From positions 1-29,852 of the forward strand of contig DATDOR010000159.1 in assembly GCA_035293165.1 (NCBI GenBank): DNA of 29,852 bases, in the 5' to 3' direction. How positions within the stretch are numbered: position 1 is the first letter of the stretch; each line of letters starts with the position of its first letter. Made by a program: the position numbers and the translations under genes. The DNA is from Anaerolineales bacterium (GTDB lineage Bacteria > Chloroflexota > Anaerolineae > Anaerolineales > JABWBV01). The notes under the pieces were generated by a model. It was not told the DNA's origin. It was given only the letters and a program-made list of their open reading frames with translations, and searched no databases. Below are positions 18,362 through 29,698 of this stretch, piece by piece.

Positions 18362-20176
18362 CTAGTTTGAAATGGGCCAGAGAAATAAGGCCATTAACAC
18401 GACGATGATCGCAACGAGAATCGTTAGAGGAGTACCTACTTTTAGAAAGTCGTTAAACTGATACCGCCCAGGGCCATATATCAATAAATTTCCGTGATGT
18501 CCAATGGGGGTTAGAAAGGAAACGACAGCTGCCATGGCTACGGCAATTACATAAGGTTGGGGAGATTGGTCGAGCGCCAAAGCGAGAGAAACCGCGACCG
18601 GCCCAAGCAAAGCAGTTGTCCCTGCATCAGACATCAACTGAGTGATAATTGCAGAGATGACAAATAAAATGAGTAAAACAAGAAAAGGGGGCCATCCAGC
18701 GACTATCGTTTGCAACCAACTGGCGATTAATTCAGATAGCCCGGTTTTCACCATAGCTAACCCCAAAGGAATCGCACCTGCAATAAATACATAAATGCGT
18801 GTATCTATGGATTTATATGCCTGTTGAAGCGATATACACCTGGTCAGGATCACGGCAGTTGCTCCCGCTAACAAAGCAATGTCCACCGGAAGCAGATTGA
18901 ATGCTGCCGCCAGAACGGTCACAATCATAATGCCCCCGACTAACCCGGCCTTATAGCGGCGCTGGGGTTCTCCATGAAATGGAGCGAGCATGAGAAAAGC
19001 ACGGGTTTCATTTAACCGGCTGATGGCTGCTTTATCTCCCATCAGCACCAGAACATCTCCGGGGCGCAATGCCACGCGGGAAAGTTCTGCGCGCATCCAC
19101 CCTTTTTGCCGCCATATTCCAACGACTAATAAACCATATCGCCGTCGAAAGTCTAATTTTGCCAGGGTTTGCCCCACCAGTTCAGAACTGGGGGCAACGA
19201 CTGCCTGCACAAGCTGTTTTTGACCATTATCATCGTCCTTCTCGGTGCCATTCCCGTTTTCCTGGTACTTTACGACAGGATGCAAGGCCATTCCTGGTGC
19301 TTCCTGGATGGCGGCCAATTCCTCCGGTGTCGTCCGTACCGTGAGCACATCTCCTTCCCGGACCTTTCGCGAGCGGAACGGTTTGGGTGTAATACGGCCG
19401 AACCGCAGCCACGTGACTACTTTAAAATGGTGGCTATCTTCATTCTCTATTTCCTCAATGGTTTTTCCGATAAAGTCCGAACCAGTCAAAACCAGGATTT
19501 CTGTGTAATATCCATCCAGACGAAAACTTTCCCCATCTATATCGCCCGCTGGCCGATCAGGGAGAAGGAAGCGGCCTGCCAGAAGCATAAACAGGATACC
19601 GGCAACGGATATAACCAACCCAATGGGAGCAATAGAAAATATCCCCAACCCCGATTGCCCGGCTTGTTTGAGCAGGCTATCCGCAATGAGGAAAGCGGGT
19701 GCGCCCAGGATGGTGATCGTGGTTCCCAGAGAAGCTGCAAAGGACATTGGCATGAGCAATCGAGAAGGAGAAATGTTTTGCTCCCGGCAAAGTTTAAGGG
19801 TGACGGGGAGCATTATGGCTGTAATCGTTACGTGATGTGTAAAGGCGGATAGGGCCGCGACGGCCAACATCATCACGACCATGACCCGGTTGTAGCCTTG
19901 CCCCGCAACTTGAACGATCCAATTCCCAATGTGGTCAGAGAGACCTGTAGCGTAGAAAGCCCCACTGAGAACAAAGATCGCCGCAATTACAATCGCCGGT
20001 TCACTACTGAACCCAGATAAAGCCTCTTCTGGCCCCAAAATTCCTGAAACCGCCAGGGCGACGATGATTATAACAGCGGTCAAATCCACCCGAATTTTTT
20101 CGGTTATTAGAAGGAAAAAAGCCGCGATGAGGATGAGAATCAATAATACCTGATGAAGATCAAGGGGAATGTTCAT
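18362..20176 (-). CDS. SLC13/DASS (CitMHS-like) permease with two TrkA-C domains
   Basis: TEKIRVDL, ALSGFSSE, MPMSFAASLGTTITILG, two soluble TrkA-C-like repeats, FLTPIGHHGNLLIYGPGRYQFNDFLKVG. Confidence 0.9.
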   Translation of the reverse strand: MNIPLDLHQVLLILILIAAFFLLITEKIRVDLTAVIIIVALAVSGILGPEEALSGFSSEPAIVIAAIFVLSGAFYATGLSDHIGNWIVQVAGQGYNRVMVVMMLAVAALSAFTHHVTITAIMLPVTLKLCREQNISPSRLLMPMSFAASLGTTITILGAPAFLIADSLLKQAGQSGLGIFSIAPIGLVISVAGILFMLLAGRFLLPDRPAGDIDGESFRLDGYYTEILVLTGSDFIGKTIEEIENEDSHHFKVVTWLRFGRITPKPFRSRKVREGDVLTVRTTPEELAAIQEAPGMALHPVVKYQENGNGTEKDDDNGQKQLVQAVVAPSSELVGQTLAKLDFRRRYGLLVVGIWRQKGWMRAELSRVALRPGDVLVLMGDKAAISRLNETRAFLMLAPFHGEPQRRYKAGLVGGIMIVTVLAAAFNLLPVDIALLAGATAVILTRCISLQQAYKSIDTRIYVFIAGAIPLGLAMVKTGLSELIASWLQTIVAGWPPFLVLLILFVISAIITQLMSDAGTTALLGPVAVSLALALDQSPQPYVIAVAMAAVVSFLTPIGHHGNLLIYGPGRYQFNDFLKVGTPLTILVAIIVVLMALFLWPISN

Positions 20177-20232: not shown

Positions 20233-20946
20233 CTATACAGGCAAATTTACCGAAACACAGTAATTGAAATTCTCTGTTTCCTCAAATTTCATTTCCCCTT
20301 TATGCGCGAGCACAATCCGATGGGCTAACACGATTCCAAACCCAAGTCCCTTTCTCAGGCGAGGATGGTTTTCAAAATTCTGTTTCGTTGTTTCCAGAGT
20401 ATCATCAAGAAGAATGAATGGATTGATTTTAGGGCCAGAATCAAACAATCTAATCTTGACAACCCTGCCCTCCCACAGCGTTTCCACCATAATCTTCGAG
20501 GATGGCGGAGAACATAAGATACTGGCGTAAATGAGATTACCTAAGGCTTGAGCGAGTCGATCTGGATCAGCATAAATATCTGACAGATTTTCACTAAAAT
20601 GGAGTTTCCATTGGAGCTTTTTTTCTGGGGCAATTTCTTGCCAGGTAGCCAAAATGGTTGTTAACCATTTAGAAAGATTGATTTTACGGCGGCTAAGTTT
20701 GATTTTCCCCGTTCGAATGCTTTGTAACAGAATCCAGTTTTCAAATAGATAGCGAAGGTAACGAAGTTCATTATCCATTCCGCCAAGCAGGTCACGGCGC
20801 AGTTCAGGATCCTGAACTGCGCCGTTCAATAGGGCCTGGTTTGCAGAAAGCGTTCCCCCCAATGAACTGCCAATATCTGTAACAAGGCTGGGTAACAACA
20901 ATTTTTCCATGTTTTCCAGGAATGTATTCACGTCAACCTGCCCCAT
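20233..20946 (-). CDS. Histidine-kinase-like protein lacking the phospho-acceptor His (pseudo-kinase)
   Basis: HisKA-like helix LVTDIGSSLGG...GAVQDPELRRDLLGGMDNE; ADPDRLAQALGNL; degenerate boxes DSGPKI and GLGFGIV...IVLAHKG. AAGGAG RBS. Confidence 0.75.
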   Translation of the reverse strand: MGQVDVNTFLENMEKLLLPSLVTDIGSSLGGTLSANQALLNGAVQDPELRRDLLGGMDNELRYLRYLFENWILLQSIRTGKIKLSRRKINLSKWLTTILATWQEIAPEKKLQWKLHFSENLSDIYADPDRLAQALGNLIYASILCSPPSSKIMVETLWEGRVVKIRLFDSGPKINPFILLDDTLETTKQNFENHPRLRKGLGFGIVLAHRIVLAHKGEMKFEETENFNYCVSVNLPV

Positions 20947-20989: not shown

Positions 20990-21280
20990 CTACCGTCTCA
21001 GGTATATAACTCTACGCCGGAGCAGAAGGCTGGCAATTCCCGTAAAGATGGCCGAACCGAGGGTTGCCCATACGATGGGAATCGTTTGACCTTCAACGGT
21101 GACAGGAAGCAGGAGGGGTAATCCAAAAGATTGGGCCATCCATTGGCCGATAATCGCACCAATGAAGCCCACGACCATGGAGACCAGACATCCCCCGAGC
21201 GTGTATCCTGCAATTGCCTGTCCTAAAGCCCCAACGACGGCAACGATCAAAAGGTAGATGAGAAATCCAACGAGTGTCAT
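20990..21280 (-). CDS. GlsB/YeaQ/YmgE-family (transglycosylase-associated) small membrane protein
   Basis: Three hydrophobic Gly-rich helices, GCLVSMVVGFIGAIIG; GGAGG RBS before ATG 21280. Confidence 0.85.
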   Translation of the reverse strand: MTLVGFLIYLLIVAVVGALGQAIAGYTLGGCLVSMVVGFIGAIIGQWMAQSFGLPLLLPVTVEGQTIPIVWATLGSAIFTGIASLLLRRRVIYLRR

Positions 21281-21307
21281 ATTGCACCTCCAATGCGAAT
21301 TTACATT

Positions 21308-21373
21308 AGGGTAGCAAAGATTTTCGTCGGATGCCTTAAGTTTGGCTTTCCGCAACCTTAAGGAAGGCTTAAG
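21308..21373 (-). promoter_or_regulatory. Regulated promoter P1: phased CTTAAG boxes plus extended -10
   Basis: CTTAAG at 21368, 21357 and 21335 (11 and 22 bp steps), 21-nt spacer, TGc-TACCCT at 21316-21308. Confidence 0.75.
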
Positions 21374-21412
21374 GGAATCGTCTGATGTGCGCTGAACTCT
21401 CGAAAAAAGTTC

Positions 21413-21462
21413 GGTTCTTTGGGAAACGGCGGGGAGGCAACCACGGCAAATCCCAAAGAGCC
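21413..21462. mobile_element. 50-bp MITE, copy 2
   Basis: Same terminal inverted repeats as copy 1; exact 8-bp direct repeat AAAAGTTC at 21405-21412 and 21463-21470. Confidence 0.88.
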
Positions 21463-21478
21463 AAAAGTTCTATTCAGT

Positions 21479-22180
21479 TTATGAGTCAAAGTGTGGAATG
21501 AATTTGTACCCTTTCCCCCGTACCGTGATGATCCGCTCAGGATATTTTGGATCATCTTCAATTTTTTCTCGTAACCAACGGATATGGACATAGACAACCT
21601 GAGGTTGCCCTTCATATTCTGCGCCCCATACCTGATTGATGAGGGAGTCGACCGAAACGACTCGTTCGGGTTCTATGGCCAACGCGTGGAGCAAATCAAA
21701 CTCCCGAGGCGATAAGTTTAGCTCTTCTCCGCGCAAGGTTGCAACAAAACGGATTGGGTTAATCTCTAAATCTCCTACGGAGATGGGGGTATGGATGGCT
21801 GCTTCAGCGGGGTTTTTGATGCGTCGAAGAACCGCTCGGATCCGGGCAATCAAAATGGGCAAATCAAATGGTTTGGTGATGTAATCATCTGCGCCAAGCT
21901 CCAACCCTAGAGCCTCGTCGAATTCACGGCGTCGCGCCGTTAAGAAGATGACGGGAAATGTATGTTGGGTTTTTAATTTTCGTAAAGCTTCGAGGCCATC
22001 CATCCCTGGCAGACCAATATCCATGAGAACCAGGTCTGGTGGATCACGCCGGACGATCTCCAGGGCATCTTCGGCATTTGAGGAGGAAGTGACTTGATAG
22101 CCAGCTTGTTCCAGATTAAATGCAAGACTGCGGCGTAAGAGTTTTTCATCTTCGACCAATAAGATATGATCAGCCATCAT
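21479..22180 (-). CDS. OmpR/PhoB-family response regulator (REC plus winged helix)
   Basis: LLVEDE, phospho-Asp in DLVLMDIGLP, FLTA, ADDYITKPF, LSPREFDLL, VYVHIRWLREKIE, ITVRGKGY. Confidence 0.95.
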   Translation of the reverse strand: MMADHILLVEDEKLLRRSLAFNLEQAGYQVTSSSNAEDALEIVRRDPPDLVLMDIGLPGMDGLEALRKLKTQHTFPVIFLTARRREFDEALGLELGADDYITKPFDLPILIARIRAVLRRIKNPAEAAIHTPISVGDLEINPIRFVATLRGEELNLSPREFDLLHALAIEPERVVSVDSLINQVWGAEYEGQPQVVYVHIRWLREKIEDDPKYPERIITVRGKGYKFIPHFDS

Positions 22181-23495
22181 TCACATCCTTTGTTGGGGGA
22201 AATAGAGGCAGGATGAAGGTAAATGTTGCTCCTTTTCCCGGATTATTTCTGGCCCAAATTTCTCCCCCATGGGTCTGAACAGCCATCCGACAAAAAGCCA
22301 GTCCTAATCCACTTCCGCTTTCTTCCTGTAATCCGGCGGAAAATTTTTCAAAAAGACGGGTTTCAATTTCAGGAGGAATCCCTGTGCCCGAATCTTTGAT
22401 AGAAATCAACACAAACTGATCCTGCGGAAGATGGGAGACTTCCCTTTCCAAATTCCCCTTCGTATCCAGGCATTTTGCACTCATCATCACGCGTCCCCCC
22501 TCTGGCGTAAACTTGAGGGCATTATCAATCAGGTTTTGTAACACGCGCTCTATTAACCGGATATCCCCTTCAATGGGTGGAATATCGCGGGAGATACGCC
22601 TGGATAGATGTATGTTTTTTTCCTGAGCCAATGGAGTCTGCGCCTTAATCACTTTTTGAACCAACCTTGAAATTGAAAATGGCTTAGGCTCAAGCGGTAC
22701 TCCTTCCCGTTCTAGTTTATGTACATCCAAAATATTATCCACTAACCGCGTCATTTTTCTTGCCCCAAGATAAGAGAACTCGATCATTGCAGATTGGTAA
22801 GGGGACAAGTTTTTCGTCTCATTGTAGAGCAACCCACTCAATGAGGACCGGATCGTCGCAAGTGGGTTGCGTAAATCATGAATGAGCGCATGGACCAACT
22901 CATCCCGCAAATTTTCCAGTTTTTGGATTTCCGCGATTTTCTGTTCAAGCGTTTTGTCTTTTTCTCGTAAGGCATCGAGAACTTGAACAAGTTCCTGATT
23001 TTGCTGGAGAATTTCTTCCAGCAAGGAGAGGGGCATCTCACTTGTGAGCGTCTCACGCCATTCCTTCACATCCTCTTTTGTCACATAGGATGTCCAGGAA
23101 GGAAACGGTTGCGCAAGCACAACCCCAATAGGTTTTCCTTCTTCAGCCTGAATTGAGAATCGGGTTGCAAGATTTTGTGTGCTACCCAGCCACTTTAGTA
23201 AATCTGGTCTGGATAAGGGGGGCTGTTGGCGTTGATCAACGGACGGAATGAAGTTTTTGGACTCTCGAAGGGTAACTTGAAGCCATTGTTTTTCCTCCTC
23301 ATCATGGATGTCGTAAGAAATATGAACACATTGACAGTAATAGTGCAGGCTTTGTGCGATTTGAGAGACTGCCGTAGTAAGTCGAGCATGATTCCCGATG
23401 GACAATTTGACCAGACGGGCAAGTTTTTGTGTCCATTGGCGAGCCAATTGAACCTCTTGCTGATTTTGGATCCATAGTTCTCCAATGTGGATCAT
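22170..23495 (-). CDS. Cytoplasmic sensor histidine kinase with a degenerate RsbT-like N-terminal domain
   Basis: H-box IHDLRNPL, N-box NLIDNALKF, DSGTGI, LFEKF, GSGLGLAF; no TM segment. N-terminus EVQLARQ...LARLVKL....ARLTTAVSQIA resembles RsbT. Confidence 0.88.
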   Translation of the reverse strand: MIHIGELWIQNQQEVQLARQWTQKLARLVKLSIGNHARLTTAVSQIAQSLHYYCQCVHISYDIHDEEEKQWLQVTLRESKNFIPSVDQRQQPPLSRPDLLKWLGSTQNLATRFSIQAEEGKPIGVVLAQPFPSWTSYVTKEDVKEWRETLTSEMPLSLLEEILQQNQELVQVLDALREKDKTLEQKIAEIQKLENLRDELVHALIHDLRNPLATIRSSLSGLLYNETKNLSPYQSAMIEFSYLGARKMTRLVDNILDVHKLEREGVPLEPKPFSISRLVQKVIKAQTPLAQEKNIHLSRRISRDIPPIEGDIRLIERVLQNLIDNALKFTPEGGRVMMSAKCLDTKGNLEREVSHLPQDQFVLISIKDSGTGIPPEIETRLFEKFSAGLQEESGSGLGLAFCRMAVQTHGGEIWARNNPGKGATFTFILPLFPPTKDVNDG

Positions 23496-23501
23496 ATTCT
23501 A

Positions 23502-23510
23502 AATATAACA
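23502..23510 (-). promoter_or_regulatory. Extended -10 placed for a leaderless kinase-regulator transcript
   Basis: Minus strand TG-t-TATATT, 6 nt, then ATG 23495; no SD sequence. Confidence 0.5.
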
Positions 23511-23593
23511 TATCAATTCGGTTATTGAAACAACGAGTTTTCAATGAAAAAGCAACGGAAATCCCTTAAGGTTGTTTTGGTCAACAGTAGTAT

Positions 23594-23624
23594 GTACACC
23601 CCCAAACACACCTTTTTTTCGGGA
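23594..23624. repeat. Right arm only of the CCCGAAAAAAGG hairpin repeat
   Basis: gtacacccccaaacacacctttttttcggga matches the arms at 15632-15670 and 29779-29802. Confidence 0.65.
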
Positions 23625-23664
23625 ATCTCGTTGTTCACACTTTCGTTGACGAATACAGAAATCC

Positions 23665-23730
23665 CTTAAGGTCGCCTTAAAGTGAATAAAAGGGTGAGTT
23701 AAGGACATGCAAAGTTGAACTTGTTATCAT
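23665..23730 (+). promoter_or_regulatory. Regulated promoter P2: phased CTTAAG boxes plus extended -10
   Basis: CTTAAG 23665, CTTAAA 23676, GTTAAG 23698, 21-nt spacer, TGt-TATCAT at 23722-23730. Confidence 0.75.
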
Positions 23731-23763
23731 CAGGATCAAAACCCGAAAGCAGATGCAAAATTC

Positions 23764-23853
23764 CAAGTGCCAGGGCTGAGTTGGGAAATGCTTAAAAGTC
23801 CTGTGGCGAAGAATGCCCTAGCCTCCTCTTCTACATAGCAGCCCTGGCACTTG
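23764..23853 (+). other. Long-range hairpin in the predicted 5' leader
   Basis: Perfect 15-bp inverted repeat caagtgccagggctg (23764-23778) / cagccctggcacttg (23839-23853), followed by a T6 run. Confidence 0.6.
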
Positions 23854-23913
23854 TTTTTTCGAAATGCTGAATTCGAGAATCAATCCCTATTCAGTAACAC
23901 CAAGGAGATAAAC

Positions 23914-24465
23914 ATGGATACCACGACTTTAATTATTACACTTGCAACCATCGTCATTGTCATCGTCGGATTACCTCTGGCATTTGTATTTATCCGCAGG
24001 CAACGGACGCAGCAGTTACAAAAAGCGTTCGGCCCTGAATATGACCGCATGAGCCATGAAATGGGGAACCAACGGCAAGCGGAGAAAGAACTAGAAGAAC
24101 GGCGAAAAAGAGTTGAGTCTTTACAACTACGGACACTAACCACGGATGAGAGTCAACGTTTTCAAAGGGACTGGATTCAAACACAAACCGAGTTCGTAGA
24201 TAACCCAAGTAGGGCAGTAGAAAAAGCTCATCACCTGGTCGTCGAAGCCCTTTTAGCGCGCGGCTATCCGAACAGCAAATATGAAGATCGGGTCGCGGAT
24301 ATCTCTGTGGATTATCCTGAATTGGTTTCAAATTATCGTAATGCCCGCGCCATCAGGAAGCATGACCAACAAAACGGAGCAACCACGGACGAACTCATGT
24401 TGTCGTTTACCCAATATCGTAGTTTGTTTGAAGAGTTGATACAGCCTGAAGAAAATGGAAGTTGA
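23914..24465 (+). CDS. Conserved hypothetical membrane-anchored protein
   Basis: AAGGAG RBS; N-terminal TM helix, then FGPEYDR, FVDNP..AV..A..LV....L.ARGYP, ADISVDYP, Y..LFEEL, a pattern I recognise from an uncharacterised family. Confidence 0.8.
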   Translation: MDTTTLIITLATIVIVIVGLPLAFVFIRRQRTQQLQKAFGPEYDRMSHEMGNQRQAEKELEERRKRVESLQLRTLTTDESQRFQRDWIQTQTEFVDNPSRAVEKAHHLVVEALLARGYPNSKYEDRVADISVDYPELVSNYRNARAIRKHDQQNGATTDELMLSFTQYRSLFEELIQPEENGS

Positions 24466-24492
24466 TTTCCATTTCTTCGAAGGAGCTATTGA

Positions 24493-25347
24493 ATGTACAA
24501 ATTTAAAGTTCTCTCCAAATCAAATTGGGAAGGCAAGGATGATTTTTACGCGATTCAAACTTGTGCGATGTCTGTTCGATGTCAGCAGAAACCAACAAAC
24601 GAAGATTTCGTCTTTCACCGGGCAACTCAGATGCCCAGTGGACATCCCATTGCCTTGTTGGTCGTGTGTGATGGCATGGGCGGCTACCAGGTTGGAAGTT
24701 TTGCAAGCGAGTTGGCCACGCATATTGTGACGACAGAGATTGGGAAATTATTTCCCCATGAAGACTTCCTCCATACCCATATCGAACAGCCCACTATTCC
24801 CAGGGCTAGTAAATTGCAAACCTGGCTAAAGGAAACTGTCCAAGAGGCCAATCGCCTGATCTTTGAATACGCAAGTAACCAGCCGGAAATCAGGCATTCC
24901 GGTACCCGGATGACACTCGCTTTAATACAATGCAGGACAGCTTATATTGCCCATGTTGGAGACACGAGGGCGTATTTGTGGCGAAATTTTGAATTAACCC
25001 AAATCACAGAGGATCATTCCATCGCAGCCGAGTTGGAGAAAGGGGGGATTCTGGAACCAACTAAAGCTCTAAATCATCCCTTCCGAAAAATTCTTTTCCG
25101 GTCAGTTGGAACCCAACCAGAAGTCAAGCCAGAAATCTACACCATCTCCCTACGGCCTGGGGACAAATTGATGCTTTGCTCGGATGGACTGTGGAACGCG
25201 TTTGATGATGTTCATCCCTTAGCGGATATTTTGGAAAATGATTTTCACCCAAACAATCTTAGTGCCATGCTCATTGATGAAGCACGAGTCCGAAATAACC
25301 GGGATGATATTAGTGTCGCACTGGCATGTGTAAATACCCTTTCTTGA
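24493..25347 (+). CDS. PP2C/PPM-family Ser/Thr protein phosphatase (PrpC/Stp-like)
   Basis: NED, VVCDGMGG, AHVGDTRAY, TEDHS, LMLCSDGLW, RDDISV; AAGGAG RBS. Confidence 0.92.
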   Translation: MYKFKVLSKSNWEGKDDFYAIQTCAMSVRCQQKPTNEDFVFHRATQMPSGHPIALLVVCDGMGGYQVGSFASELATHIVTTEIGKLFPHEDFLHTHIEQPTIPRASKLQTWLKETVQEANRLIFEYASNQPEIRHSGTRMTLALIQCRTAYIAHVGDTRAYLWRNFELTQITEDHSIAAELEKGGILEPTKALNHPFRKILFRSVGTQPEVKPEIYTISLRPGDKLMLCSDGLWNAFDDVHPLADILENDFHPNNLSAMLIDEARVRNNRDDISVALACVNTLS

Positions 25348-25374
25348 GATTGAACGATATGGAGGATAAGGTCG

Positions 25375-27999
25375 ATGACAACATACTCGAACGATGATCA
25401 AATGCCCTTTCTTGCAGAGCTCGATATGCAAGAGTGGTTCGTTACTCCTGGCAAGTCCACCTACATTCCTGTACAGTTGGCTAACCAGGGGACCGCCACA
25501 AAAATTTTACAGTTGTCAGTCAGCGGGATCCCAGCCCATTGGTTGGAAATGGTTCCCGAAAAAGTGGTTGTCTTGCCAGGCGAGCAAAAAGAGGTCGCGT
25601 TGGTTGTCCAACTGCCCGATGCCCCCATGACGAAGACAGGACGCTACCCCATTCAAGTCACGGTGATGCAAGCGGAGAACGACAGCGAAAAAGTCGTTTT
25701 AAAAGGCACTTTGACAGTAGCAGCGTATGAAGTCCAGGGCAGGATTGCCATCCTGATGGACGCTCTCCACTTTTCAGTCGCCCCCGGGGCTGCGGTTATC
25801 GTGAACATTAAATTGATCAACCAGGGTCTTGAAGAAGATACATTCCAGTTGGCAGTGGATGGCATACCGGCAGCCTGGGTTTCCACCGCAACTCCATCGC
25901 TACGATTACGTCCTGGAGAACAGAAACCTGTTTCCATCCTTATTCGGCCAGCGCGTCACTTTCAAAGTCGGGCGGGACGGCATCCGTTCAAGTTGCGGAT
26001 CGTCAGTCAACTGAACCCTTCTGAAGCTGCAGTGGTGGATTGTGTCTTAACCATTGAGGCTTACTCCGAATTTAAGAGTCAACTCATACCCGAAAAAGTG
26101 CTAATAGGGGAAAACGTTCAGATGGTCATTGAGAACTCAGGGAATATCCCTGATTCCTATTCCTTGACCTGGGCCAGCACAAACCAGGACTTGGGATTTG
26201 AATGGACGGGTGATTATCTTTCAGAAAATAACCCCCAAATAGACGAAGAAGGCGCTGTAAAAGTACGAATCCCACCTGGAGATAAGGCTGTACTCCATTT
26301 CCAGCCCAAACTTCAAACCGGGCTTAATCTGATAGGCAATCTTGTTTATCCATTTAAAGTCAATGTTGAGGCGACGAATAGCGTTGTTCAGTCCCACGCA
26401 GGGGAAGTGGTCAGCCGGGGATTGATCCCCGTATGGGTTGTTCAGGTGGGAATAATGGTGCTACTGGGCACAATGTGTTTGGCTGGTTTTTTCCTCGCTC
26501 GCGGTAACCTGATTTCTACTCAAGCCACGGAAACAGCCCTTGCGGCTATAGCCGGTTCTACCCAAACCGTCGAATTCTCCGCATCTCAAACCGCGGCTGC
26601 AACCCAAACCGCGTCCGCCAATATGACTCAAGCTGCTGAAGCTGGCCAAGAGGATTCAGATGGCGATGGATTGACTAATGATCAAGAAGCGGAATTCGGA
26701 ACCGATCCGTTGCTTGCAGATACGGATAACGATGGATTGTTCGATGGTGTTGAAATTGCCGGGATGACAAATCCATTGAATCCCGACACAGATGGGGATA
26801 CCCTGACGGATGGCGACGAGGTGCAGCGTGGTACGGATCCCCGTAGTCAGGACACGGATACAGATTCACTTTCCGATGGGCAAGAAATCCAACTTGGAAC
26901 AAATCCGCTCAACCCCGACTCGGATGCCGATGGTCTTTCGGATGGAAGTGAAACACCCCCCTGTCCTGATCCACTCAACCCGGACTCCGATAATGACGGT
27001 CTCATTGATGGGCAAGATTTTGAACCTTGCGATCCCAATAATCCATCTTTGACGGAGACAGCTATTGCTGCGAGCCCCACAGAAACGCCTGTCCCTCCTG
27101 CTGAAACCCCGACAGAAGCTCCAACCGATGTGCCTACCGAGTTACCCACTGAGCCCCTGGAACCAACTTCCACTTCTGAACCACAAATTCCTCCATTGGA
27201 TGGGGTCATGGCTTTGATCTCCACTCGGGATGGTAACCCGGAAATTTACACTTTGCACCTTGCTGATAACAGTTTGACGCGCTTAACCATTGATCCTGCG
27301 GTAGAAGCCCAACCATCCTGGTCGCCAGATGGCAGTCAGATTGCTTTCGCTACCAATCGGGATGGTAATTTTGAAGTCTATTTGATGAATGCGGATGGAA
27401 CTGGTTTGGTAAACCTGACCAATAATGGCAGTGATGATTTTGACCCGGCCTGGTCACCGGACGGAACACAAATCGCTTTCGCTTCGAATCGCGATGGGAA
27501 CAATGAGATCTACATCATGAATGTGGATGGAACCGATCCACATAATGTGACTAGCAACCCTGCGGATGATTCTCAGCCGAGCTGGTTCATTAAAGGTGGA
27601 CTACTTCCAACCGTCCGAATCGCATTCACGTCGGATCGAGACGGGAATCAAGAGATTTACTCGATGAATCCGAGTGGGGTAGATCAAAATAATCTGTCCA
27701 ATAACCCGGCAGATGATCATTCACCGGCTGGATTATCCGATCTTGGATTAATCATTTTCACCACGAATCGAGATGGGAATCAAGAAGTTTATGTCATGTC
27801 GGATGATGGCTCATCTCAATCAAATTTAACACACCAACCTGCTGAGGATTGGGCACCGACATGGGCTAATGCAGAATGGGTCGCATTTGTTAGCACTCGA
27901 GATGGAAATCAGGAGATTTATATTGTAAATGGTGATGAGCAGTATAACCTTACTGCCAACCCTGCAGACGATTACGATCCAGGCTGGTTTACGCCATAA
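25375..27999 (+). CDS. Large single-pass membrane protein: Ig-like domains, TM helix, Ca-binding (TSP3-like) repeats, PT linker, TolB-like PD40 propeller
   Basis: Three beta-rich N-terminal repeats (N.G...D.F/Y.L); TM VWVVQVGIMVLLGTMCLAGFFLA; six D.D.DGL.D..E repeats; repeated P.WSPDG.QIAF.S/TNRDGN.EIY units. Confidence 0.82.
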   Translation: MTTYSNDDQMPFLAELDMQEWFVTPGKSTYIPVQLANQGTATKILQLSVSGIPAHWLEMVPEKVVVLPGEQKEVALVVQLPDAPMTKTGRYPIQVTVMQAENDSEKVVLKGTLTVAAYEVQGRIAILMDALHFSVAPGAAVIVNIKLINQGLEEDTFQLAVDGIPAAWVSTATPSLRLRPGEQKPVSILIRPARHFQSRAGRHPFKLRIVSQLNPSEAAVVDCVLTIEAYSEFKSQLIPEKVLIGENVQMVIENSGNIPDSYSLTWASTNQDLGFEWTGDYLSENNPQIDEEGAVKVRIPPGDKAVLHFQPKLQTGLNLIGNLVYPFKVNVEATNSVVQSHAGEVVSRGLIPVWVVQVGIMVLLGTMCLAGFFLARGNLISTQATETALAAIAGSTQTVEFSASQTAAATQTASANMTQAAEAGQEDSDGDGLTNDQEAEFGTDPLLADTDNDGLFDGVEIAGMTNPLNPDTDGDTLTDGDEVQRGTDPRSQDTDTDSLSDGQEIQLGTNPLNPDSDADGLSDGSETPPCPDPLNPDSDNDGLIDGQDFEPCDPNNPSLTETAIAASPTETPVPPAETPTEAPTDVPTELPTEPLEPTSTSEPQIPPLDGVMALISTRDGNPEIYTLHLADNSLTRLTIDPAVEAQPSWSPDGSQIAFATNRDGNFEVYLMNADGTGLVNLTNNGSDDFDPAWSPDGTQIAFASNRDGNNEIYIMNVDGTDPHNVTSNPADDSQPSWFIKGGLLPTVRIAFTSDRDGNQEIYSMNPSGVDQNNLSNNPADDHSPAGLSDLGLIIFTTNRDGNQEVYVMSDDGSSQSNLTHQPAEDWAPTWANAEWVAFVSTRDGNQEIYIVNGDEQYNLTANPADDYDPGWFTP
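26653..27020 (+). repeat. Coding repeats: six Asp-rich calcium-binding motifs
   Basis: DSDGDGLTNDQE, DTDNDGLFDGVE, DTDGDTLTDGDE, DTDTDSLSDGQE, DSDADGLSDGSE, DSDNDGLIDGQD; end coordinate approximate. Confidence 0.8.
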
Positions 28000-28024
28000 A
28001 TACTTGGAGGAAGGAGAAATAAAA

Positions 28025-28132
28025 ATGAAAATCCCCCGCAAACTTGGAACTTTATTGCTTGCGATATGGCTGATCCTGATCGGATTATCGGGATTTGTGA
28101 GCCTGGGTGATCTGGCCAGGATTAAGGAGTAA
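28025..28132 (+). CDS. Very small hydrophobic protein (35 aa)
   Basis: Strong GGAGGAAGGAG RBS; MKIPRKLGTLLLAIWLILIGLSGFVSLGDLARIKE*; its 3' end contains the RBS of the next gene. Confidence 0.6.
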   Translation: MKIPRKLGTLLLAIWLILIGLSGFVSLGDLARIKE

Positions 28133-28137
28133 CTTTT

Positions 28138-29232
28138 GTGAATCAATACCTTCAGTCCAACCTGGACCTCGCCCAAATTTTAGAAAGCCACCGGGGAGAG
28201 TGCCACGTGATTGTGTTGCATGACTTCCCCGATCCGGATGCCATCGCCTGTGCCTTTGCACACCGACAGATCAGCAAAGAATTCGAGATTGAAGCGGATA
28301 TTATATACACCGGGGAGATCAGTCACCAGCAGAACCTGGCCCTGGTCAAATTACTGGATAACGAATTGTTTGTGTATGAGGAGTCGATGGACATGGGGAA
28401 ATATCAAGCGGCGATTTTTTTAGATCATCAAGGAGCAACGGTTGAGGAGGTTATTTCTGCATTGGAAAAGGCGAATGTTCCCATCCTTCTTGTTGTGGAT
28501 CATCATAAACCTTATGATCGTTTGACCCCAAAATTCAGTGAAATCATTGAAACTGGGTCAACTGCCACGATATATGCCTATTTCCTGGAAAGAGGGGTGA
28601 TAGAACTGGATAAAACGGATACGAACCTTACCTTAATGGCAACATCTCTTTTGCACGGTATCCTGACAGATACAGGTGGTTTTATTCAGGCAGATGCCCA
28701 GGATTTTCATGCGGCAGCCTTCTTAAGTCATTACCGGGATGCAGATATTCTGAACCAAATTATGAGTCAGGAACGAACCAAACATGTCCTGGATGTCATT
28801 CAAAGCGCCCTGGAAAATCGGGAAACTATCGAGAATTTCTCTGTTGCAGGGATTGGGTACGTCCGAGCAGGGGATCGTGATGTTATTCCGCAGGCTGCAG
28901 ATTTTCTCTTGACGGAAGAAAATGTCCATACGGTGGTTGTCTATGGGATAGTAAAAGATGATGAGCATGAGGAGACTTTGGTAGGGTCTTTACGGACATC
29001 CAAATTTATCCTGGATCCGGATAAATTTATTAAGGACACTTTCGGCAAAGGTGTTGATGGTATGTATTTCGGCGGGGGGCGCAAATCTGCAGGCGGGTTT
29101 GCCATCCCGGTCGGGTTTTTATCCAATGGCTCCAGTGAAGATTTCCAGAAACTAAAATGGAAAACTTATGACGCACAAATCAAGCACAAGATTTACGCGA
29201 AAATCGGTGTCAACGATGAGAATGATTTTTGA
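28138..29232 (+). CDS. DHH-family phosphoesterase (NrnA-like oligoribonuclease / pAp phosphatase superfamily)
   Basis: HDFPDPDAI, FLDH, VVDHH, GSTATI, GILTDT, C-terminal GGGRKSAGG; GTG start with AAGGAG RBS. Confidence 0.9.
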   Translation: MNQYLQSNLDLAQILESHRGECHVIVLHDFPDPDAIACAFAHRQISKEFEIEADIIYTGEISHQQNLALVKLLDNELFVYEESMDMGKYQAAIFLDHQGATVEEVISALEKANVPILLVVDHHKPYDRLTPKFSEIIETGSTATIYAYFLERGVIELDKTDTNLTLMATSLLHGILTDTGGFIQADAQDFHAAAFLSHYRDADILNQIMSQERTKHVLDVIQSALENRETIENFSVAGIGYVRAGDRDVIPQAADFLLTEENVHTVVVYGIVKDDEHEETLVGSLRTSKFILDPDKFIKDTFGKGVDGMYFGGGRKSAGGFAIPVGFLSNGSSEDFQKLKWKTYDAQIKHKIYAKIGVNDENDF

Positions 29233-29272
29233 CGATATCCGATAAAAACGGAAGAATCGAACTCTAAATAAC

Positions 29273-29318
29273 ACAGACCACAAATAGGCTCGCCAGGACA
29301 ACCTGATTTGTGGTCTGT
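29273..29318. terminator. Hairpin between convergent genes, candidate terminator
   Basis: 13-bp perfect inverted repeat acagaccacaaat / atttgtggtctgt followed by a short T run on the plus strand; the 20-nt loop is long for a classic terminator. Confidence 0.5.
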
Positions 29319-29371
29319 TTTGTTACATCTTCTGATAAAAATGTATGATGGTTCCTTTGTTATTTTCCCGT

Positions 29372-29530
29372 TTAGTTGCCCAAACAACGGCTTAAGACAG
29401 CGCCAAAGATCATGATCAGGAGGATGAAACCTAGAAACCTTCTTCGCCGGAATCTTCTAAGTCGGTTAGGCCATAACGGTGAGGCACCTAATAACAACAA
29501 TGCTAAAACGATGAGTAATATGATGCCCAT
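29372..29530 (-). CDS. Small two-helix membrane protein, DUF3309-like (52 aa)
   Basis: AAGGAG RBS; MGIILLIVLALLLLGASPLWPN resembles the DUF3309 start (ILLI.L.LLL.GA.P.WP), followed by an Arg-rich loop and a second helix. Confidence 0.65.
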   Translation of the reverse strand: MGIILLIVLALLLLGASPLWPNRLRRFRRRRFLGFILLIMIFGAVLSRCLGN

Positions 29531-29632
29531 AAAAATTCTCCTTTTTTCCCTGGGGGTCAACATTCCAAGGGGTCCAGTTATAGTGGCGGTGCAAGGCAAT
29601 TTCCTTCTCGCGGGAACTGGTGCTACTTCTAA

Positions 29633-29698
29633 AGTATATCAGCTTACTTTTGCTTCGTCCTTAAGAAGTCCCGCGTTTTTCTTTAAGATGACCTTAAA
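29633..29698 (-). promoter_or_regulatory. Regulated promoter P3: phased CTTAAG boxes plus -10
   Basis: On the minus strand TTTAAG (29698-29693), CTTAAA (29687-29682), CTTAAG (29665-29660), 21-nt spacer, TATACT (29638-29633). Confidence 0.75.

Follow-up and report, generated by a model that had tools for sequence, protein, structure and literature searches.

Three promoters on a single contig of an uncultured member of the Anaerolineales (Chloroflexota) share an array of phased TTAA-type direct repeats, and these arrays are probably the activating operators of the OmpR/PhoB-family response regulator that is encoded beside them. The contig (C159 of assembly G000; GenBank DATDOR010000159.1, assembly GCA_035293165.1) was analyzed over its full length of 29,852 nucleotides (nt), hereafter referred to as the window, and the assembly to which it belongs comprises 4.58 Mb in 759 contigs and is 85.5% complete. 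Judging by its relatives and by the read runs that contain the sequence, all of which are DNA runs, the organism lives in soil or sediment. The regulator gene (21479–22180, minus strand; Pfam domains Response_reg and Trans_reg_C) is co-transcribed with the gene for a soluble histidine kinase (22170–23495, minus strand; HisKA and HATPase_c), and the three arrays, which we designate P1, P2, and P3, are found in the same window.

On the transcribed strand all three arrays follow one layout that consists of two YTTAAR boxes 5 nt apart, a gap of 16 nt, an STTAAG box, a further 21 nt, and a TAnnnT hexamer. P1 (minus strand, 21373–21308) reads CTTAAG-ccttc-CTTAAG-16-CTTAAG-21-TACCCT, P2 (plus strand, 23665–23730) reads CTTAAG-gtcgc-CTTAAA-16-GTTAAG-21-TATCAT, and P3 (minus strand, 29698–29633) reads TTTAAG-gtcat-CTTAAA-16-CTTAAG-21-TATACT, exactly as had been claimed in the original prediction, which was made from the sequence of this stretch. 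The same prediction placed the half-sites on an 11-bp register with a degenerate third position and the proximal box against the -35 region, and both statements hold: half-sites start at 0, 11, (22), and 33, the third position of P1–P3 reads GGAAAG, TAAAAG, and ACGCGG, and in the consensus of the sites a partial -35 element, GACA, directly follows box 4 at 17 nt from the -10 hexamer. The P1 operator array (21335–21373, minus strand) is composed of box 1 at 21373–21368, box 2 at 21362–21357, a weak box 3 at 21351–21346, and the proximal box 4 at 21340–21335; its extended -10 element, TGcTACCCT (21308–21316, minus strand), begins the hexamer 21 nt after box 4 and gives a predicted transcription start near 21301. 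The P2 array (23665–23703, plus strand), which is divergent from the kinase gene, has boxes at 23665–23670, 23676–23681, 23687–23692 (weak), and 23698–23703, and is followed by a core promoter (23702–23730, plus strand) made up of a partial -35 AGGACA, a 17-nt spacer, and TGtTATCAT, with a predicted start near 23737; this core promoter, including the TG, was also recovered by a promoter consensus scan. The P3 array (29660–29698, minus strand) has boxes at 29698–29693, 29687–29682, 29676–29671 (degenerate), and 29665–29660, its extended -10 TGaTATACT lies at 29633–29641 (minus strand) with a predicted start near 29626, and 154 nt remain between P3 and the end of the contig.

CTTAAG is palindromic, intergenic DNA tends to repeat short AT-rich words, and there is a small inverted-repeat element close to P1; one could therefore suppose that the similarity among the arrays is due to chance or is a remnant of duplicated or mobile DNA without any regulatory role. 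Using the strict pattern YTTAAR-N5-YTTAAR-N16-STTAAG-N21-TAnnnT we found three matches in the whole assembly, all of them in the window, against 0.00034 expected genome-wide from hexamer frequencies. The original prediction had named shuffled DNA as the comparison to be made, and there the relaxed pattern TTAA-N7-TTAA-N18-TTAA never arose (0 in 100 dinucleotide-preserving shuffles of the window against 3 in the real sequence). A weight matrix built from 20 sites of this genome and its relatives gave the same picture, as only P2 (53 bits), P1 (46), and P3 (37) scored above 12 bits among the 9.1 million positions of the genome. Chance is therefore excluded as the origin of the pattern. Outside the boxes the three sites are only 18–34% identical and thus do not represent a duplicated segment, and the layout is kept across clades in which the spacers are randomized, so that this explanation as a whole is effectively refuted. 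The original prediction also proposed that the sites would provide a motif for mapping the regulon of the regulator; the motif is indeed precise and the matrix scan could be run with it, but the regulon that emerged consists of just these three promoters in an 85.5%-complete assembly.

Several features of the 20-site matrix that were not used to select the sites are informative as to the orientation of the repeats and the nature of the promoter. The half-site is yTTAArsT, conserved after its core and not before it, and sT occurs only downstream of boxes 1 and 2, which reveals a direct-repeat orientation despite the palindromic core. The third position keeps nnaAAG, with A at the fifth base in 18 of the 20 sites. 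After the proximal box comes an invariant G, in most cases continued by aCa, which yields xxGACA exactly 17 nt from the -10 hexamer as a partial -35, and TG is found one base before the -10 in all but one of the sites (19/20), which corresponds to an extended -10 element (TGnTAnnnT). TAnnnT follows the proximal box after 21 nt in 18 sites, after 20 nt in one, and after 22 nt in one. When sites from distant clades are compared, box edges are 66–67% identical versus a random 24–34% for the spacers, and in P1-type sites the TGnTAnnnT positions are 100% identical. A fifth half-site was sought between box 4 and the -10, and no conservation was found there; we also considered box 4 as the -35 element of an alternative-sigma promoter and rejected this assignment, as the spacer would be 20–21 nt.

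To place the arrays in a wider context, we used a comparative set of 41 genomes (the host genome and 40 relatives), to which loci from searches of metagenomes and protein collections were added. Full-length orthologs of the kinase (49–53% identity) are encoded in only two of the 40 related genomes (G005 and G002), and a search of genome contigs with the N-terminal domain of the kinase returned only the two loci known before. The metagenome search added four kinase loci (L020–L023), and together the metagenome and protein-collection searches contributed six more lineages (L020–L023; L024–L029), resulting in eight orthologous lineages among which the N-terminal part of the kinase is 43–89% identical. 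Synteny is conserved in these lineages, with an operon encoding a PP2C protein running one way and the genes for the kinase, the regulator, and a HATPase-only protein running the other way. At every orthologous locus with enough flanking sequence, the PP2C operon and the kinase gene have a P2-type array between them, and a P1-type array with the box-N5-box-N16-box arrangement is found just 3' of the regulator gene. The TACCCT hexamer of P1 is kept in four close lineages, and the others have TAnnnT at 21 nt.

The strict pattern has no match in the 40 relatives, because the proximal box is often TTTAAR there. For the count over all 41 genomes the looser pattern TTAA-N7-TTAA-N18-TTAARG was used, with the reversed pattern as a control. 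It gave 14 matches, 11 of which are such arrays in the three genomes that encode a kinase ortholog; the others are one stray match in the host genome and two in the 38 genomes that lack an ortholog, where matches number 0–1 per genome, which is about the rate of the control. In G005 two more arrays are present on the same contig, one upstream of a GlsB-type gene and the other upstream of a truncated transporter gene. Two also occur in G002, on other contigs (L030, G002:C33, 962–1341; L031, G002:C347, 1047–1891), which precede a gene for a 79-aa (amino acid) GlsB/YeaQ-type protein and a gene for a 254-aa PRC-barrel protein. These positions suggest that the content of the regulon varies between lineages while its stress-protein flavor is kept.

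The regulator is the only DNA-binding protein common to all cassettes. It matches the receiver domain PF00072 with 104.8 bits and the winged helix PF00486 with 95.4 bits, and it scores below the cut-off of every NCBIfam equivalog model, the best matches being YycF, MtrA, PhoB, and CseB. An assignment as a PmrA equivalog was rejected (NF007928, 144.7 bits versus a cut-off of 330), as was one as a PhoB equivalog (TIGR02154, 197.4 versus 296.2; NF007546, 160 versus 471). The original prediction had likened the boxes to those of PmrA/QseB-type regulators, and here the likeness of the motif stands whereas the regulator itself is not a PmrA equivalog. Its eight orthologs are 67–90% identical overall. 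The helix QPQVVYVHIRWLREK is invariant in all of them, as are the segment from NQVWGAE through QPQVVYVH[IV]RWLREK, which covers the loop and the recognition helix, and the wing RGKGYK, and the recognition helix occurs in no other OmpR-type gene of the assembly. The sole near relative of the regulator in the assembly is a decayed paralogous OmpR-type fragment on another contig (G000 C598, ~2100–2655), which resembles the regulator up to QVWGAEFSGQ, is cut before the recognition helix, and has lost the start of the receiver domain.

The co-inheritance of arrays and cassette and the invariant, unique helix support the original proposal that the boxes are sites for the regulator encoded at 21479–22180, which would make it the likely binder. 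That a different transcription factor encoded elsewhere binds the arrays, and that the neighboring regulator has other targets, appears very unlikely to us. The binder is deduced from adjacency and co-occurrence only, and a NarL-type regulator is also encoded in the P2 operon of some lineages, both of which would be compatible with another factor. However, the NarL-type gene is absent from the window and from most lineages, the motif is confined to sites beside this cassette and to genomes that have it, direct repeats phased at 11 bp are a signature of OmpR/PhoB winged-helix proteins, and, together with the motif, the recognition helix does not vary.

If the neighboring regulator is indeed the binder, the following mechanism can be proposed. 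The soluble kinase would phosphorylate the regulator encoded beside it, and the phosphorylated regulator would bind as a pair of tandem head-to-tail dimers along a single face of the DNA, occupying four half-sites 11 bp apart that from upstream to downstream would be strong, strong, weak, and strong. The two tandem dimers of the original prediction fit well with the four positions phased at 11 bp, the third of which has a residual AAG. With the -10 hexamer set at -12 to -7, the boxes lie at about -72 to -67, -61 to -56, (-50 to -45), and -39 to -34. The upstream dimer, on two strong half-sites, would cooperatively aid the downstream dimer, whose two half-sites differ in strength (first weak, then strong), and the downstream protomer would adjoin sigma region 4 or alpha. 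In this way the regulator may recruit or stabilize a sigma-70-type polymerase at promoters whose -35 element is poor and whose -10 hexamer is weak and extended by TG. The regulon would be small and strictly local, comprising P1 (a GlsB-type protein, a His-less kinase-like protein, and an anion transporter), P2 (the PP2C operon), and P3 (a DUF3309-like peptide).

The same regulator could also bind the arrays and repress or act dually, the extended -10 promoters being active alone and binding at -39 to -34 hindering the polymerase. We consider this improbable. The TGn extended -10 is present at 19 of the 20 sites, and promoters of this kind can do without a -35 element; moreover, in four lineages (L016 12606–12676, L027 3715–3778, L023 611–673, and L029 1489–1555) a gap of only 7–14 nt separates box 1 of the P2-type array from the -10 of the divergently oriented kinase promoter, where binding could repress. 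Weighing against repression, the whole array is upstream of the core promoter, with its end at the -35 region, the -10 hexamers are weak (e.g., TACCCT), and activator sites typically show a constant phase relative to the -10, here 21 nt, which a repressor would not require. Regarding the divergent promoter, the P2-type array could autoregulate the kinase/regulator operon in the four lineages named; the gap between the P2 array and the divergent kinase promoter in the window is 170 bp.

Activation by the adjacent regulator thus remains our preferred reading, and four points weigh against it. Promoters with an extended -10 can function unaided, which leaves activation unproven. More sites may exist, as the assembly is incomplete and the window spans an entire contig. 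In the relatives the TTAA cores were found with a pattern search, and their 100% conservation is partly a matter of ascertainment. Finally, the lineages are interrelated and so are not fully independent of one another.

P1 sits downstream of the regulator gene and on its strand. The first gene under its control would be that for a 96-aa small membrane protein of the Transgly_assoc (GlsB/YeaQ/YmgE) type (20990–21280, minus strand; PF04226, 27 bits), which is preceded by a GGAGG ribosome-binding site. The second encodes a 237-aa His-less kinase-like protein (20233–20946, minus strand), which matches HATPase_c only and has no HisKA match, and is the sole P1 target found in all eight lineages. A gene for a 604-aa CitMHS/TrkA_C anion transporter (18362–20176, minus strand) is probably the third, as judged by strand and spacing, and its gene order is as in L024. 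Between the stop codon of the regulator gene and P1 there is a 12-bp inverted repeat, GGCTCTTTGGGA ... TCCCAAAGAACC, followed by T6 (21401–21462, minus strand), which could terminate the kinase/regulator transcript.

The P2 operon (23914–29232, plus strand) encodes a 183-aa membrane-anchored protein, the PP2C phosphatase (24493–25347), an 874-aa TolB/PD40/TSP3 protein (25375–27999), and a DHH protein (28138–29232); in relatives PP2C is encoded by the first gene. The 15-mer GAAATCCCTTAAGGT is found twice on the plus strand, 100 bp apart (23558–23572 and 23658–23672). The second copy contains box 1 of P2, and the first constitutes a lone single box between P2 and the kinase gene that is absent in L024. 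Between the P2 start and the first gene of the operon lies a leader hairpin (23764–23853, plus strand) that is conserved in six lineages (L022, L025, L016, L027, L023, and L024) and consists of a 14-bp stem around a variable interior of 36–127 nt. Across the six lineages 6 of the 14 pairs show compensatory double changes and none is broken, and in the window and the three closest lineages the hairpin is followed by a T-run, which makes it attenuator- or terminator-like. Rfam gave no match at the gathering threshold in the window, and the P2 leader returned noise only. The hairpin may be a second layer of control on the PP2C operon. P3 precedes a gene for a 52-aa small membrane protein (29372–29530, minus strand) that is DUF3309-like, its PF11752 score of 18.5 bits being below the cut-off of 22.3.

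The first 190 residues of the kinase matched no Pfam family and showed no obvious membrane segment by eye. Language-model features place residues 1–185 (22929–23495, minus strand) beside HATPase_c_2 (RsbW/RsbT/SpoIIAB-like) clusters, 185 features being shared at a score of 0.92, which we take as a lead only. The kinase gene has an extended -10 element, TGTTATATT, at 23502–23510 (minus strand) that ends 6 nt before the ATG (23495), and no Shine-Dalgarno sequence; this extended -10 is kept in five other lineages, and three more have TATAAT 10–16 nt before the ATG. This arrangement suggests that the kinase/regulator mRNA is leaderless or near-leaderless.

On the basis of these gene contents one may speculate, with considerable doubt, that the cassette is a self-contained general-stress circuit of the Anaerolineales that is built on a two-component system and not on an alternative sigma factor. 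The soluble kinase, with its RsbW/RsbT-like N-terminus, would then drive the regulator, the induced PP2C phosphatase and the His-less kinase-like protein would feed back on the sensor by partner switching, stress-related membrane proteins (GlsB/YeaQ-type, DUF3309-like, and in a relative PRC-barrel) would be induced, and the leader hairpin would add control on the PP2C operon. The conserved core itself, in which the genes for PP2C and the His-less kinase-like protein flank the kinase/regulator pair, hints at such a built-in feedback.

To our knowledge, almost no transcriptional regulation has been mapped in uncultured Chloroflexota of soil and sediment, and the arrays provide a precise operator and a complete candidate regulon for an uncharacterized two-component system from this group. 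The candidate regulon is unusually compact, its three promoters being no more than 8.4 kb away from the regulator gene. The mechanism we propose is conventional, as the reading of TTAAG-type direct repeats by OmpR/PhoB regulators is textbook knowledge, and several described boxes are similar enough to require comparison. The CiaR box of the streptococcal CiaRH system, NTTAAG-N5-TTTAAG, is a single pair located 10 nt from the -10 (PMC3091779). It shares with the arrays a near-identical half-site and the 11-bp direct repeat, its reader is an OmpR-family activator, as is proposed here, and its motif also defines a small regulon; however, there is one pair in CiaR boxes versus four phased positions here, only 5 of 13 residues are common to the two recognition helices (VVEVYVSKVRKKL versus VVYVHIRWLREKI), and the organisms belong to different phyla. 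An assignment of P1–P3 as CiaR boxes was rejected on the distance to the -10, which is 43 nt for box 2 and 21 nt for box 4, although boxes 1 and 2 match in sequence.

The pmra-box of PmrA/BasR is XTTAAY-N5-XTTAAY, the amide residue N188 of PmrA contacts AA, and activation by the PmrA dimer has been visualized (PMC10570014). Both systems have a TTAA direct repeat one helical turn apart that is, or here would be, read by an OmpR/PhoB winged helix, and in a hand alignment only, Gln appears to occupy the N188-equivalent position of our regulator. The targets are unrelated, and P1–P3 were rejected as pmra-boxes: the pmra-box replaces the -35 element, whereas here the strong pair lies at about -72 to -56 (~43 nt from the -10) and a single box abuts the -35 region. 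The BqsR/CarR box of Pseudomonas aeruginosa, TTAAG-N6-TTAAG, overlaps the -35 region and is bound in gel shift assays (PMC4358008); it has the same pentamer at the same spacing, but it is a single dimer site and belongs to a system with a membrane Fe(II) sensor and a larger, dispersed regulon. The Pho box of cyanobacterial SphR consists of at least three tandem 8-bp CTTAACCT repeats with 3-bp linkers (PMC1906773), and thus resembles the arrays in its 8-bp YTTAA unit on an 11-bp register and in the need for more than two repeats. Unlike SphR and PhoB systems, the cassette has no pst or pho genes among its targets and its kinase is not PhoR-like. P1–P3 were rejected as Pho boxes, as the targets encode small membrane proteins, PP2C, HATPase-only, transporter, and TolB-like proteins and are not concerned with phosphate acquisition.

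OmpR activates ompF and ompC as tandem dimers. Tandem-dimer activation has been visualized for PhoP of Mycobacterium tuberculosis, with tetramer and hexamer complexes (PMC11825685). In PhoP and OmpR at least two head-to-tail dimers are placed on phased direct repeats that end at the -35 and contact the polymerase, an arrangement that the four positions of P1–P3 resemble; the binding sequences differ, and a corresponding stoichiometry here is suggested by the layout of the sites. Overall, the system has the general features of OmpR/PhoB operators, namely a regulator with a receiver and a winged helix, direct repeats of 10–11 bp, and a fixed distance to the -35 of a sigma-70-type promoter, and P1–P3 are set apart from the known boxes by their four positions with a weak third one, by a proximal box that is one helical turn further from the -10 (21 versus ~10 nt), and by an extended -10 partner.

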